NCBI GenBank assembly: GCA_963742735.1
Contig: CAVUMN010000003.1
Span: 480,001-544,000 of the forward strand
DNA from: an uncultured Actinomycetes bacterium
GTDB taxonomy: Bacteria; Actinomycetota; UBA4738; JBBDTT01
Direction: 5' to 3'
DNA length: 64,000 bases
Position numbers and translations under genes: made by a program. The notes under the pieces are model-generated. The model searched no databases. It was not told where the DNA came from and saw only the letters and a list, made by a program, of their open reading frames with translations. The stretch's first letter is position 1. Each line of letters begins with the position of its first letter. Positions 11,773-59,150 of the stretch are shown here, in pieces.

Positions 11773-13038
11773 ATGGCGATCGTGTCCGCGACCGACGCCC
11801 TCGTCCAGTTCCTGCGAGACCACGGCGTCCCGGAGGACCAGATCCAGGCGGCGAAGGCCGAGGGCCCGAGAGCGCTGGAGCTCCTTGCTTCGGAGCGCAT
11901 GCTCATCGGCGAGGAGGCGAAGTACACCGCGCCGGAGTGCGCCGCCATCGCCGGCGTCCCCGAGGACCTCGCCGACCGCTTCTGGCGCGCCCTCGGCTTC
12001 CCGGACGTCCCGAAGGACCAGCCGATCTTCACCGACGCCGACGCCCGGATGCTCGCCGCCGCGGGCCAGCTGATCGAGCGCGGGATCTCCGAACCGGAGG
12101 TTGCCCTCCAGGTGACAAGGGTCATGGGGCTGTCGCTGGCCCGTGTTGCCGAGGCGCAGGTCGAGTCGTTCCGTCAGTCGATCGAGGCCGCCATGCGCGA
12201 GGCCGGCGCCGACGACGACGAGATCGCGCTCACCGTCCTCCAGCTGGCCACGGCCCTGATCCCGACGCTGGAGGCGTTCCTGCTGTACACGTGGCGGCGC
12301 CACCTGGCCGCGGCGGCCCGCCGCCACATGGTGGCGCACTTCGGGGATGAGGACCCCGGCGTCTCACTGGTCGTCGGGTTCGTGGACATGGTGGGGTTCA
12401 CCTCGCTCAGCCAGCAGCTCGACGACCGCCAGCTGGGACAGATCGTCGAGCGGTTCGAGGGCCTCGCGTACGACACCGTCGCCGCCTACGGCGGACGCGT
12501 GGTGAAGTGGATCGGCGACGAGGTGATGTTCGTGGCCGAGGACGTGCTGTCCGCGGCCGAGATCGCGCTCCGGATGGCCGAGGCCCACTCGGCGGCGGAT
12601 GACCTGCCCGACGTGGCGGTCGGCCTGGCCGCCGGGAAGGTCCTGCCCCGGGAGGGGGACTACCTGGGCCCCACCGTGAACCTGGCCGCCAGGATCGTCT
12701 CGGTCGCCCGGCGGGGGACCGTCGTGATCTCGGAGCCGACGCGCGATCTTCTGAACGAGGCCGAGACCGTGGAGTACGTGTGGCGCCCGTTGCGGCCGCG
12801 GGTCCTCAAGGGGATCGGCCGGGCGCAGCTGTGGAAGCTCGCCCGCGCCCAGAGCCTCGAGGCCGACGACGCGGGGCGGGCCCCGATCGCGACCACACGC
12901 GCCCGCGTGGAGAACGCCCTGGTGCGGGCCTCCGACGTCGTCGACCAGGTCGGGGAGCCGCTCGAGCGCATCGAGGAGGCCGTGAAACGGGTCAAGGAGC
13001 GCCGGTCGGACCGCACGAGGCGTCGAGGAAGATCCTGA
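11773..13038 (+). CDS. Class III adenylate/guanylate cyclase with N-terminal regulatory domain
   Basis: RFWRALGF regulatory region; GFVDMVGFT, VKWIGDEVM, DYLGPTVNLAAR, LKGIG. Confidence 0.9.
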   Translation: MAIVSATDALVQFLRDHGVPEDQIQAAKAEGPRALELLASERMLIGEEAKYTAPECAAIAGVPEDLADRFWRALGFPDVPKDQPIFTDADARMLAAAGQLIERGISEPEVALQVTRVMGLSLARVAEAQVESFRQSIEAAMREAGADDDEIALTVLQLATALIPTLEAFLLYTWRRHLAAAARRHMVAHFGDEDPGVSLVVGFVDMVGFTSLSQQLDDRQLGQIVERFEGLAYDTVAAYGGRVVKWIGDEVMFVAEDVLSAAEIALRMAEAHSAADDLPDVAVGLAAGKVLPREGDYLGPTVNLAARIVSVARRGTVVISEPTRDLLNEAETVEYVWRPLRPRVLKGIGRAQLWKLARAQSLEADDAGRAPIATTRARVENALVRASDVVDQVGEPLERIEEAVKRVKERRSDRTRRRGRS

Positions 13039-55485: not shown

Positions 55486-55634
55486 TCGTTGGCTAGGCAT
55501 CGAGTCGATAGGCCGGAACATGCGCCGACATGTGCGACGCTTAGCGGTGGTCCCTTAGCCAAAGGTTGAACGCTCGATCGAACACGATCGAAACCCGCGA
55601 AGTTGGCTTCGGCAAGCCAAGCAAGCCAACCCAG

Positions 55635-55707
55635 TAGTCCCAACGGGGTTCGAACCCGTGTCTCCACCTTGAGAGGGTGGTGTCCTAGGCCTCTAGACGA
55701 TGGGACC
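55635..55707 (-). tRNA. tRNA-Glu (CTC)
   Basis: GGTCCCA...TGGGACT acceptor stem; CCACC-CT-CTC-AA-GGTGG anticodon arm; GGTTCGAACC T arm; CCA not encoded. Confidence 0.97.
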
Positions 55708-57061: not shown

Positions 57062-58128
57062 GTGCGGATCCTGATCAGCTATCGGCGCGAGGACTCCGCC
57101 GGCCATGCCGGCCGGCTCTACGACGACCTGACGGAGCACTTCGGCCCGGGGCACGTCTTCATCGACATCGACACCATCCAGCCCGGCGCGGACTTCACCA
57201 AAGCCGTCGCCCAGGAGATGCAGAGGTCCGAGGTCGTCCTGGTGGTCGTCGGACCGCGGTGGCTCTCGGTCACGGACGAGAGCGGCCGGCGCCGGCTCGA
57301 CGACCCCGGCGACTACGTCCGGCTGGAGGTGGAAGGCGCCCTTGCTCGGGAGGACGTTCGGCTGATCCCGCTGCTCGTCCAGGGCGCTCCGATGCCCGCG
57401 GTCCGCGATCTCCCGGAGCCCCTGCATCCCTTCGCGTACCGGAACGCGCTCTCCATCTCCGAGGACCGATGGAGGTACGACGTGGGCCGGCTCGTCCAGG
57501 CGCTCGATCCCAAGACGGCCGTACCGGAGGATCGCTCGGCGCGGACGTCCCGGGGCCGGGGTCGCGCGCTGACGGCCGCCATCGTCGCCGGCGTGGTCCT
57601 GATCGGCGGGGCGGTCTACGCGCTCACGCGCGGCGACTCGCCCGGGACCCCACCGTCGTCGCAGAGTCCGGGGACCACGGCGCCCGGTACGGTCCGCCCG
57701 CCGACCGGCTTCTCGCCCTGATCCCCGAGCACATCCGGGGGTCCTGCCAGGAGGTGACCGAGCCGAACAATCGGCCGAGCGGCGCGCTGGCCACCTTCGA
57801 CTGCGGGAGCGGCGGAGCGTACGCGTCCTACAGCCTGTTCCCGACGTCCGCCGCCGTGGACGATCTCTATCTGGAGCGGGTGGTGAATTCGGGGGTCGCG
57901 AAGAACTCGGGGGCCTGCCTCGGCGACGACTGGCCTGGGGAGGAGGGCATCGAGGGCCACGATTCGGAGCAGGCCCGGCTGCTGTGTACGCAGGAAGCGG
58001 GGGAGGATCCGAACCTCACCTGGAAGCGCTCGGACCTGATGGTCTACGCCACCGCGGGGAGCGGCGGCACGCGGGAGGACCTGCTCGAGTTCTGGGAGCG
58101 CGCCGGACCGGTCGGGCCCGGCGAGTGA
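57062..58128 (+). CDS. TIR-domain membrane protein (TIR - TM - Cys-containing extracellular domain), apparent indel near 57700
   Basis: ILISYRREDS..AGRLYD.L, VFIDID.I.PG.DF, DYVRLEV; TM segment; second frame ADRLLALIP...C...C...C...C...FW. Confidence 0.82.
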
Positions 58129-58133
58129 GCGTC

Positions 58134-58176
58134 TGGCTGGGACGCCAGGATTCGAACCTGGACGAACCAGGACCAA
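58134..58176 (-). pseudogene. 3' half of a tRNA-Gln (from the anticodon loop to CCA)
   Basis: Minus strand reads TTG-GT-CCTGG-TTCGT-CCAGG-TTCGAAT-CCTGG-CGTCCCA-G-CCA; no matching 5' half found nearby. Confidence 0.85.
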
Positions 58177-58185
58177 GGATGCCGC

Positions 58186-58194
58186 TGCTATTCT
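58186..58194 (+). promoter_or_regulatory. Extended -10 box (TGC-TATTCT) for tRNA-Gln
   Basis: 12 nt upstream of tRNA position 1; lies inside a 7-bp inverted repeat CCAAGGA(58173-79)/TCCTTGG(58203-09). Confidence 0.55.
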
Positions 58195-58206
58195 GGAGAG
58201 GTTCCT

Positions 58207-58281
58207 TGGGACGTGGGGTAATTGGTAGCCCGACGGATTCTGGCTCCGTTAGTTCAGGTTCGAGTCCTGACGTCCCAGCCA
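58207..58281 (+). tRNA. tRNA-Gln (CTG), CCA encoded
   Basis: TGGGACG/CGTCCCA acceptor stem; ACGGA-TT-CTG-GC-TCCGT anticodon arm; TCAGG-TTCGAGT-CCTGA T arm. Confidence 0.97.
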
Positions 58282-58692
58282 TCTCTTCGCCCAGGTCCTG
58301 ATGCGGTGACAGTTCGCGCACACGACGTCGCATTGTGCGACTTCGGCCCTGATCTCCCGTAATGGCCGGCTCCCCTGAGCTTTGCTGATGTTGAATCTTT
58401 TTGTCTCCGGGTTCACATGATCGAAGTCCATGACGTAGGCGGGGTAGCGTCGTCCGCAGTCCGCGCACGGACGATCCTTCGCGCCCTCGAGGAATCGCCG
58501 GGCCGTCGCGCGAGACTGCCGATTTCGGGACAGGGCAGCTGATCGATACCGTTCCGCGTTCCGCGCATAGTGTTGTTTCGCGTAGGCGCTCTGACACTCC
58601 ACGCAATACGACTGCATTCCATCGGCGCGGCGACGGTTTCGGTTGAAGGACACGGGCGGCTTGGTCAGGCCGCATCCGGGACAACGCTTCAT
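58249..58692 (-). CDS. Zinc-finger HNH endonuclease; last 33 nt antisense to tRNA-Gln
   Basis: CPGC and CVEC N-terminal zinc finger; CADC...MDFDH...N...CDVVCANCHRIRT HNH core. Confidence 0.88.
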   Translation of the reverse strand: MKRCPGCGLTKPPVSFNRNRRRADGMQSYCVECQSAYAKQHYARNAERYRSAALSRNRQSRATARRFLEGAKDRPCADCGRRYPAYVMDFDHVNPETKRFNISKAQGSRPLREIRAEVAQCDVVCANCHRIRTWAKRWLGRQDSNLN

Positions 58693-58698
58693 CCGCGA

Positions 58699-58720
58699 AT
58701 CGTAGCGAGCGGGTGTGACA
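58699..58720 (-). promoter_or_regulatory. PafBC / RecA-NDp-type DNA-damage promoter, leaderless
   Basis: TGTCAC-N10-TACGAT, then 6 nt to ATG; same spacing as the TGTCGG-N10-TAnnnT consensus. Confidence 0.65.
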
Positions 58721-58817
58721 CGATCGGGCTGCGCAGGCTGTGACGCCCGATCGCACCATCTACTAAGGTTCGCGGCTGTTGCCCGGCAGGCCGATCCTCT
58801 GGGGAAGGAGAAAAACC

Positions 58818-59150
58818 GTGAACAAGGACGAGCTCGTGGCCGAGGTGGCCAAGCAGGCCGACGTCGCCAAGTCCGTTGCCGCGGCGGTGCTCGAGGCGCT
58901 CACCGACACGGTGAAGACCTCGGTCGCCAAGGGTCAGAAGGTGGCGCTGGTCGGTTTCGGAACGTTCGAGAAGCGCGTGCGCAACGCACGCACCGCGCGC
59001 AACCCGCGCACCGGGGAGACCATCAAGGTCGCGAAGACCAACGTGCCCGCGTTCAAGCCCGGCGCCGCGTTCAAGGAGAGCGTGGCCGGCTCGAAGAAGG
59101 CGGGAGCGAAGAAGCCCGCTGCCAAGAAGACCGCCGCCCGCAAGCGATAG
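58818..59150 (+). CDS. hup: HU family DNA-binding protein with short Lys/Ala-rich tail
   Basis: NKDELV, VGFGTFE, ARNPRTGE, PAFKPG; AAGGAG RBS. Confidence 0.95.
   Translation: MNKDELVAEVAKQADVAKSVAAAVLEALTDTVKTSVAKGQKVALVGFGTFEKRVRNARTARNPRTGETIKVAKTNVPAFKPGAAFKESVAGSKKAGAKKPAAKKTAARKR

Follow-up and report, generated by a model that had tools for sequence, protein, structure and literature searches.

How did an actinobacterial chromosome come to hold the 3' third of one tRNA-Gln gene head to head with a complete and different tRNA-Gln gene, into which the reading frame of a putative HNH nuclease runs from the opposite side? The locus lies at 58134-58740 of the window, the 64,000-nucleotide (nt) stretch analysed here (positions 480,001 to 544,000 of contig CAVUMN010000003.1, assembly GCA_963742735.1), whose source genome, that of an uncultured Actinomycetes bacterium, is called G000 below. 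Comparison with related genomes points to an HNH element of the homing type, entering tRNA genes where the variable loop meets the T arm and bringing a replacement tRNA with it, the block at 58168-58740 being its insert; the probability of this reading is put at about 0.65.

The tRNA-Gln locus and its empty counterparts

Positions 58134-58167 (minus strand) hold the 3' third of a tRNA-Gln gene, which runs from the variable loop through a perfectly paired T arm (CCAGG-TTCGAAT-CCTGG) and the 3' acceptor strand CGTCCCA to the discriminator G and CCA; this remnant is not called as a gene by ARAGORN or Rfam. After 39 nt (58168-58206) follows a complete tRNA-Gln(CUG) gene (58207-58281, plus strand; Rfam 62.2 bits, E 4.2e-12), uninterrupted and encoding CCA according to both programs, on which the HNH open reading frame (ORF; 58249-58692, minus strand, 147 amino acids) converges. 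The TAA stop codon of the ORF (58249-58251) is within the variable loop of this tRNA-Gln; the overlap is 33 nt, the last 10 codons and the stop being the antisense of the 3' 33 nt of the tRNA gene. The remnant and the complete gene share the acceptor end, differ by a compensatory change in the T stem (CCAGG/CCTGG in the remnant, TCAGG/CCTGA in the complete gene), and form a 34-nt inverted repeat (58134-58167 versus 58248-58281, 88% complementarity) with 80 nt between its arms. The 25-nt 3' end of the remnant matches the window at two places, 58134-58158 exactly on the minus strand and 58257-58281 with 2 mismatches on the plus strand (0 of 100 shuffles match), and this core is found at just those two sites of the 3.08-Mb assembly.

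The corresponding locus without the HNH gene is found in G001, the second of the two genomes of genus g1 that were compared (61% complete, with the locus on a 21-kb contig). Its gene order is tRNA-Glu (minus), about 2.6 kb, an intact tRNA-Gln (minus) and hup (plus), and no HNH homologue was found anywhere in this 61% complete genome in a search with the HNH protein of the window. Positions 58099-58167 align with G001 12227-12296 at 80% identity by blastn, the alignment covering the 3' part of tRNA-Gln (31 of 34 bases identical) and continuing, by blastn and pairwise alignment, into the host flank downstream of the resident gene (58099-58133). Homology to the G001 tRNA-Gln ends at 58167 and restarts on the hup side at 58741, from which position to 63954 the two genomes align at 78%. 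The intervening insert (58168-58740), made up of spacer, tRNA-Gln, HNH gene and spacer, takes the place of 115 nt of G001, namely the 5' part of tRNA-Gln and 75 nt of spacer DNA; neither its 39-nt left spacer, which has a -10-like TATTCT (58189-58194) 12 nt before the tRNA, nor its 48-nt right spacer (58693-58740) has a counterpart in G001. As far as the alignments can tell, the architecture is that of a 573-bp block replacing the 5' two-thirds of the resident tRNA-Gln together with adjoining intergenic DNA and leaving its last 34 nt. The cassette-borne tRNA-Gln is 63/75 identical (84%) to that of G001, whereas for six other tRNAs with orthologs in both genomes the figure is 72/75 to 75/77 (96-99%), and for the syntenic tRNA-Glu 73/74; judged by these identities, it is not an ortholog of the resident tRNA-Gln and is foreign-looking.

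The initial annotation, made from the sequence alone, had described the half tRNA-Gln, the complete tRNA-Gln(CTG) facing it and the converging HNH gene with its stop codon inside the tRNA, as well as the shared acceptor end and the T-stem difference, and all of these are present. It had also predicted an empty allele in relatives with a single minus-strand tRNA-Gln and no HNH gene, and G001 has exactly this, with the 3' part and flank aligning with the fragment. Its interpretation is partly supported, and all the computational checks that it proposed went its way. Its placement of the break must be revised: the fragment was thought to span 58134-58176 and to begin in the anticodon loop, with cleavage near the anticodon, but homology to the G001 tRNA ends at 58167, so that the assignment of 58168-58176 to the 3' strand of the anticodon stem is unsupported, and the fragment starts at the variable loop, with the breakpoint at the variable-loop/T-arm boundary.

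Replacement of a resident tRNA-Gln is seen in other pairs of congeners. G040 and G140 are collinear on both flanks (76-80% identity), and a 633-nt block of G040, containing an inverted tRNA-Gln and a frameshifted HNH gene, replaces 142 nt that hold the resident tRNA-Gln in G140. In G044 and G031 the tRNA-Glu part is 61/61 identical and the tRNA-Gln region 87%. Empty sites in same-genus genomes are thus known from G001, G031 and G140. The G000/G001 and G040/G140 comparisons, like the split and remnant tRNA genes of other family members described below (L218 and the Arg-type scars), are independent of unpublished genomes, whereas the G044/G031 pair makes use of the unpublished G031.

A survey of the order covered 87 tRNA-Gln loci (the window and 86 others), with hup within reach in 64. 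tRNA-Gln is divergent from hup, the native form, in 52 of the 64 (3 of them with an HNH gene or HNH remnant), and co-oriented with hup, the inverted form, in 12 (6 of them with an HNH gene or remnant). Family f8 has both states: Glu(-)Gln(-)hup(+) without HNH in G035, G050 and G039, and Glu(-)Gln(+)HNH(-) followed by hup(+) in G023, G045 and G058. Genome G031, with adjacent Glu(-)Gln(-) and no HNH, and genomes G008 and G044, with Glu(-)Gln(+)HNH(-), have hup outside the examined stretch; tRNA-Gln is identical in the four HNH-less genomes G035, G050, G039 and G031. The empty pattern in f8 is drawn partly from the unpublished G031, G039, G042 and G059 (G035 and G050 are not so flagged), and the occupied pattern partly from the unpublished G045 (G023, G008, G058 and G044 are not so flagged); other unpublished genomes are G027 (inverted without HNH), G030, G006 (survey row) and G642 (phylum-sample row).

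As initially proposed for the window alone, the tRNA-Gln beside an HNH gene is a sequence type distinct from the resident tRNA-Gln of the same genus, and the type crosses family lines. Identical tRNA-Gln sequences of the HNH-linked type are found in G273 (family f5) and G029 (f6), and G044, G058 and G027 (f8) have a tRNA-Gln identical to that of G133 (f5). The tRNA-Gln of G040 differs from those of four mutually identical congeners, and G030 has an HNH-type tRNA-Gln without HNH. G008 and G045, of one genus, have very different tRNA-Gln and HNH genes (68% DNA identity) within flanks that are 80% identical. The alignment column most associated with the presence of HNH is T-stem pair 51:63, which is A:T in 10/12 HNH-linked tRNAs versus 15/75 others (Fisher p ~3e-6, with kinship ignored); from its distribution it would be the best candidate for an immunity position, G023 being an exception.

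The 5' half of the remnant's T arm looks partly duplicated (TCCTGGTTCG followed by TCCAGGTTCG): just 5' of the T arm, 58154-58167 (minus strand) reads GTCCTGGTTCG, which resembles the first half of the T arm of G001. The 5' strand of the T stem is likewise partly duplicated at the break in the split tRNA of L218, and such duplications could be a footprint of repair.

Upstream of the HNH-linked tRNA-Gln, a motif GCTG[GC]TA followed by a -10-like hexamer (TATTCT or TAGCAT) was spotted by eye about 12-25 nt before the tRNA gene in six genomes (58184-58196 in G000, and G045, G008, G058, G027 and G023), as was a TACCAT motif preceding the separately transcribed tRNA-Glu in f8; a scan of 57900-58900 for promoter and terminator consensus sequences gave no match.

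Only one other tRNA gene is found in the 64 kb of the window by ARAGORN besides tRNA-Gln(ctg): tRNA-Glu(CUC) (55634-55707, minus strand; Rfam 61.2 bits), a conserved left landmark co-oriented with the remnant and 2.4 kb to its left. The conserved right flank is hup (58818-59150, plus strand), encoding the HU DNA-binding protein (Pfam Bac_DNA_binding, E 2e-29). Within 57062-58128, the coding region of a TIR-domain protein (Pfam TIR_2, E 4e-12), for which a membrane segment is predicted, ends at 57721; a different frame stays open from there up to 58128, close to the tRNA remnant, and the whole stretch may be one frameshifted gene. It has no match in the corresponding interval of G001 and gives a weak ThsB-like hit in PADLOC. 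A second tRNA-Glu(ctc) of the source genome (G000:C2:208723-208797; L155 124-198) matches the syntenic tRNA-Glu(ctc), that of the window as well as that of G001, at only 48 of 75 positions and may be foreign or a copy that has diverged; it has no HNH homologue nearby. A second member of the HNH family was not found in G000, nor one between the divergent tRNA-Gly and tRNA-Pro genes there, and ARAGORN found no tRNA-Gln(UUG) in this 88.9% complete assembly, where CAA codons have no cognate tRNA.

The HNH family and its tRNA partners

The 147-residue protein has an N-terminal zinc ribbon (C4/C7...C30/C33) in addition to a C-terminal HNH domain. Ten residues are invariant among 23 aligned homologues (C30, C33, C76, C79, D91, H92, C121, C125, C128 and H129), and N127 is conserved in at least 90%; among them are the D-H motif (D91/H92), the downstream N127 and final H129 of HNH nucleases, and the paired CxxC motifs C76/C79 and C125/C128, as in an HNH motif stabilised by zinc. 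Matches to PHROG families 2255 (E 8.6e-36) and 3106 (E 3.7e-28), both 'HNH endonuclease', agree with this assignment, and a profile search of the Protein Data Bank (PDB) gave only weak matches, to the En domain of LtrA (E 0.066) and Gme HNH (E 0.16). The AF2 model has a pLDDT of 93.5, with low confidence in the tail encoded antisense to the tRNA (residues 138-147); a VIA structural search with it ranks the Gme HNH nickase first (4h9d; Z 5.0, rmsd 4.1 over 63 aligned residues), followed by GVE2 HNH, T4 EndoVII, the Cas9 HNH domain and McrA at Z 3.3-3.9. No NCBIfam model scored below E 0.06. On this evidence the protein is taken to be an HNH nuclease with its catalytic and zinc-binding residues intact.

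Homologues are sparse and nearly always beside a tRNA gene. Within the order, 17 of 294 genomes (6%) encode one, and 18 of 19 HNH places have a tRNA gene within about 100 nt; a clade of more than 50% identity lies by tRNA-Gln and a second clade by tRNA-Pro(tgg) or tRNA-Gly(tcc), and 4 of the 12 Gln-linked copies are broken or remnants. A sample drawn evenly from the phylum had a homologue in 22 of 401 genomes, and of the 19 places that this added, 15 have a tRNA gene within about 200 nt. When one genome per species was scanned, at least 567 relatives came up, of which the best 80 loci were examined: these come from Actinomycetota, Acidobacteriota, Planctomycetota, Rhodothermales, Chloroflexota and other groups, and in 73 of the 80 a tRNA gene lies within 150 nt of the ORF, namely Arg(acg) in 33, Gln in 12, Gly(tcc) in 10, Lys(ctt) in 6, Thr(ggt) in 5 and others in 7. 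The order, phylum and species-scan sets overlap and contain relatives, so that their counts are not independent; chance adjacency is estimated at about 1.4% (from 52 tRNAs in 3.08 Mb). In a tree of 29 HNH proteins the clades follow tRNA identity, with support of 93/91 for the Gln clade and 96/82 for the Pro/Gly clade of the order, and the HNH protein of G045 groups with that of G023, not with that of its congener G008 (modest supports).

The family extends to phages and plasmids. Homologues of up to 44% identity occur in 386 phage records; in 6 of the 8 examined a tRNA gene, in most cases tRNA-Pro(tgg) or tRNA-Arg(acg), precedes the homologue by at most 52 nt, and in ArcherS7, Lewan, LilhomieP and MS810 the homologue sits between clustered tRNA genes. 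Seven enterobacterial plasmid records have a homologue at 37% identity. The homologue of Streptomyces phage Cursive (L163, 563-2022) is not by a tRNA gene and directly follows genes for a polynucleotide kinase and an RNA ligase of the tRNA-repair type. Genome G492 has two tandem, head-to-tail HNH paralogues (L138, 1064-1941), 37-38% identical to the query, beside a convergent tRNA-Lys(ctt).

Several members have evidently left scars in tRNA genes. At the acidobacterial locus L218 a resident tRNA-Gln is split at its variable loop/T stem by an insert with a complete tRNA-Gln and HNH: the 5' part of the resident gene, up to the first bases of the T stem, is followed by 24 nt, a different and complete tRNA-Gln, 74 nt and the HNH ORF, whose stop codon is within the T stem of the 3' part of the resident gene. 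When the two pieces were joined in silico, ARAGORN called tRNA-Gln(ctg) in 113 of 154 cut-point combinations; neither piece alone was called. L214 has the same layout in decayed form, and shorter remnants of 15-16 nt flank the HNH gene at L179 and L219. Among Arg-linked bacterial loci, 6 of 33 (L177, L189, L193, L194, L205 and L210) have a complete tRNA-Arg(acg), the HNH gene, and then a T arm with the 3' strand of the acceptor; likewise, in phage TunaTartare the T arm and acceptor strand of tRNA-Arg directly follow the HNH stop codon, with a complete tRNA-Arg(acg) 44 nt before the start of the ORF. The break is at the variable-loop/T-arm boundary in all these scars and in the window. The initial annotation had proposed counting how often members of this HNH family abut a tRNA with an inverted half-tRNA upstream; the tRNA association proved general among the best loci, whereas the inverted half-tRNA is confined to G000, the remnants of other members being direct.

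The remnants after the HNH gene at four acidobacterial loci (L189 1923-1943, L193 1942-1962, L194 640-660 and L205 1921-1941) form a perfect T-arm hairpin with an altered stem (GCATG/CATGC versus GGAAG/CTTCC) and an unchanged acceptor strand. A hairpin kept in spite of an altered stem suggests selection on structure, or a function of the remnant, for example in RNA processing or as a target-mimicking minihelix.

Homing, inheritance and other explanations

In the proposed explanation the block would be a minimal selfish element, made up of a free-standing HNH gene, tail to tail (33-nt overlap) with its own tRNA-Gln(CUG), and a short promoter. Its nuclease would cut HNH-less tRNA-Gln alleles at or near the variable-loop/T-arm boundary, and the break would be repaired from an element-bearing copy. 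The inverted orientation of the block in G000 and the missing 5' remnant suggest that repair there probably proceeded by homology on the hup side and by an illegitimate join on the other. The tRNA of the element differs from its target in the T arm and elsewhere, and presumably is not cut for this reason. Because the single tRNA-Gln among the 52 tRNA genes that ARAGORN finds in G000 (5 contigs, 3.08 Mb) is that of the element, the host would depend on it and simple loss of the block should be lethal, with the proviso that this assembly is 88.9% complete and a second tRNA-Gln could be missing from it. If the replaced tRNA is indeed single-copy, such an element could not be lost by simple deletion. 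More broadly, the odds seem about even that the family is a large and hitherto undescribed class of minimal homing elements of many phyla and phages. Each would be an HNH gene of some 0.4 kb with one particular tRNA gene as its target, entered at the variable-loop/T-arm boundary, and the host would survive because the element supplies a new 3' part or a whole replacement tRNA.

A number of observations weigh against homing, besides the incompleteness of the assembly. Some concern the protein, for which Pfam gives no match at E up to 10 and Foldseek, searched with the model, none at E <=0.001. Others concern the tRNAs: G023 has an intact HNH gene beside a T stem of resident type; the T stem of the remnant is, at pair 51:63, of the HNH-linked type, unlike that of G001; and the acceptor pair 5:68 is A:T in the cassette tRNA, the remnant and the G001 resident alike, whereas other HNH-linked tRNAs have C:G or T:A, which would fit a local origin or gene conversion. 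Among the 12 Gln-clade loci only G000 has kept a tRNA remnant, and none can be recognised in f8 in the DNA that separates tRNA-Glu from the inverted tRNA-Gln. There are also six genomes in which tRNA-Gln is inverted although no HNH gene was detected. Finally, between families the tRNA+HNH blocks have a DNA identity of 65-82%, close to that of the housekeeping genes beside them, and no recently transferred block was found in an all-against-all blastn comparison of 18 loci. The divergence of HNH, similar to that of its flanks, argues that the element is old here, and much of its distribution could reflect old vertical inheritance with many losses. The initial annotation's picture of a spreading cassette is to this extent qualified: the replacement architecture and the empty sites agree with it, and recent mobility, as judged by high-identity blocks among these 18 loci, does not.

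These last observations are the substance of the foremost alternative, that HNH and a convergent tRNA-Gln are an ancient, vertically inherited pair from which HNH has mostly been lost, and that the block of G000 was inverted or duplicated in place, without homing or horizontal spread, so that part of the 3' end of the tRNA was left as a copy. Relative to hup, the block of G033 and G273 is oriented opposite to that of G000 and G023, a difference that a simple inversion does explain, and the shared 5:68 pair speaks for the same history. Local rearrangement does not readily account for a remnant contiguous with host flank orthologous to that of the G001 tRNA, for a cassette tRNA only 84% identical to that of G001 when six other tRNAs are 96-99% identical, for the three genera in which the tRNA-Gln of HNH-bearing genomes differs from that of congeners, for identical HNH-linked tRNAs in different families, for the divergent tRNA-Gln/HNH genes of the congeners G008 and G045 beside much more similar flanks, or for family members that split tRNA genes outright. 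Inheritance with rearrangement in place is considered unlikely.

The six inverted loci without HNH are L055 (G027), L058 (G053), L067 (G012), L097 (G133), L102 (G163) and L130 (G161), with gaps of 0.5-1.9 kb between tRNA and hup; G027 and G133 bear the HNH-linked type of tRNA. From their arrangement, the nuclease gene may have been lost or replaced after the tRNA was swapped. Three further genomes have 5' fragments of tRNA-Gln (27-37 nt, 96-100% identity) co-oriented with an intact tRNA-Gln 1.1 to 3 kb away and without HNH: G293 (L085, 1482-1508; 56 nt from hup), G132 (L096, 583-619) and G146 (L098, 6037-6067; with an integrase-like ORF in the insert). Searches of the six inverted HNH-less genomes and of the G293, G132 and G146 insertions for HNH remnants gave only matches of the tail that is antisense to the tRNA, and ORF listings of the inserts at the inverted loci and in these three genomes gave nothing informative in this high-GC DNA. 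On this comparison the tRNA-Gln/hup site looks like a hot spot at which insertions of several kinds occur.

A cellular or defensive role linked to tRNA is an improbable alternative to homing. The HNH protein would be a domesticated partner of tRNA genes, for instance one whose substrate is their DNA or their transcripts, or would belong to anti-defence tRNA arrays, and the remnants would be functional T-arm/acceptor minihelices. The perfect hairpins with a different stem in four acidobacterial remnants are in keeping with this, as are the phage homologue beside polynucleotide kinase and RNA ligase genes and the abundance of HNH genes in mycobacterial tRNA arrays, where they are the most widespread coding sequence (CDS; PMC5966550). 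A patchy occurrence in 6% of the order, frameshifted and truncated copies, clean empty sites in congeners and the lack of any PADLOC match to the HNH protein favour an invading element over such a role.

The chance that the half tRNA is instead the attachment-site repeat of an integrase-type island, for example of the 2.4-kb TIR stretch between tRNA-Glu and the remnant, with HNH as a bystander, is slimmer still. That stretch does differ between G000 and G001, where the TIR gene has no match, and other insertions at the tRNA-Gln locus have left 5' fragments (G293, G132 and G146, the last with its integrase-like ORF). As the initial annotation had held, no integrase is evident (Pfam named none among 8 ORFs scanned at 54.7-60.1 kb) and the 34-nt repeat is inverted, not direct; the 573-bp insert contains only tRNA and HNH, the intact tRNA is 39 nt away and not the length of an island, and in other genera without this island the tRNA+HNH block likewise replaces the resident tRNA.

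Least probable of all is a chimeric join at the 34-nt repeat or the junction in this metagenome-assembled genome. The assembly is in 5 contigs and 88.9% complete, and public sequencing data comprised one DNA run with a small share of such sequence and no RNA run; the contigs of the DNA run, which are short and come from relatives, do not bridge 58130-58290. Yet the junction is within a 962-kb contig, an imperfect repeat of 34 nt is too short to mislead an assembler, and the order tRNA-Gln(+)/HNH(-)/hup(+) recurs in the independent assemblies G023, G045, G058 and G040 (and, with hup out of range, in G008). A 224-nt contig of the DNA run (X1) has 96% identity to 58015-58167, and its match breaks off precisely at 58167, where homology to G001 also ends, a weak hint that it represents an empty or different allele in a closer relative.

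A group I intron was considered and rejected, the tRNA-Gln being uninterrupted, and a fragment of a tRNA array was rejected as well, the tRNA-Gln standing alone.

Comparison with known systems

Homing nucleases borne by introns and inteins invade conserved, essential genes without destroying their function. They preserve function by splicing, whereas the element of the window would preserve it by bringing a spare gene or part of one; its HNH ORF is free-standing between tRNA-Gln and hup, outside any intron or intein. To our knowledge, homing endonucleases in essential genes are otherwise found only within introns and inteins, or else beside their targets in phage genomes. Islands and prophages whose integrases target tRNA genes carry a copy of the tRNA 3' end, keep the gene intact and leave a displaced 3' remnant. 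The Arg-type members of the HNH family have the same layout; the element of the window differs in having no recombinase, in its size of about 0.5-0.6 kb, in encoding the HNH protein only, and in carrying a whole tRNA that is inverted relative to the remnant.

The closest precedents among phages are nucleases of T4 and T5. SegB of T4 cuts tRNA genes at their 3' end, with GGTTCRANTCC in the T arm as its recognition motif, and takes adjacent tRNA genes with it when it homes (PMC2330249). It resembles the present element as a free-standing nuclease gene among tRNA genes, and the breakpoints in the window are likewise at the T arm. SegB differs in being a GIY-YIG, not an HNH, enzyme, and in acting between co-infecting phages on dispensable phage tRNAs, not on a bacterial chromosome; the abstract and discussion of PMC2330249 mention neither tRNA genes that are split or left as remnants nor an ORF overlapping a tRNA. 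F-TflI, F-TflII and F-TflIV of T5, whose ORFs are in the tRNA gene region of that phage (PMC2330249), are HNH enzymes encoded within a tRNA cluster, and likewise belong to a phage and not to a chromosome. In the tRNA arrays of Mycobacterium chromosomes, plasmids and phages, adjacent HNH genes have been proposed to shape the tRNA repertoires of phages (PMC5966550). Those arrays are accessory and contain many tRNAs, whereas in the window one housekeeping tRNA gene has been exchanged, a scar remains and congeners have empty sites; the passages of PMC5966550 consulted describe no element that inserts into a tRNA gene and carries its replacement.

Searches of full-text literature, largely without subscription journals, turned up no account of an HNH element splitting or replacing a housekeeping tRNA gene of a chromosome while supplying a spare. 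What is known, then, are HNH and GIY-YIG genes in phage tRNA clusters and mycobacterial arrays; what appears from the comparison to be new is the replacement of a chromosomal tRNA by an HNH element with a spare. The comparative evidence points to nuclease genes that enter bacterial housekeeping tRNA genes carrying a spare tRNA or its 3' part. For annotation, such loci combine an ORF that overlaps a tRNA gene with remnants that resemble pseudo-tRNAs. Should cleavage be confirmed, it would explain the frequent HNH genes among phage tRNAs and in tRNA arrays, offer a route for the exchange of tRNA alleles between distant bacteria, and provide a set of small natural nucleases whose clades are apparently specific for Gln, Arg, Lys, Pro/Gly and Thr tRNA genes. 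If the family is indeed a class of minimal homing elements, then carrying a spare would be a third strategy of silent invasion, beside self-splicing introns and inteins.

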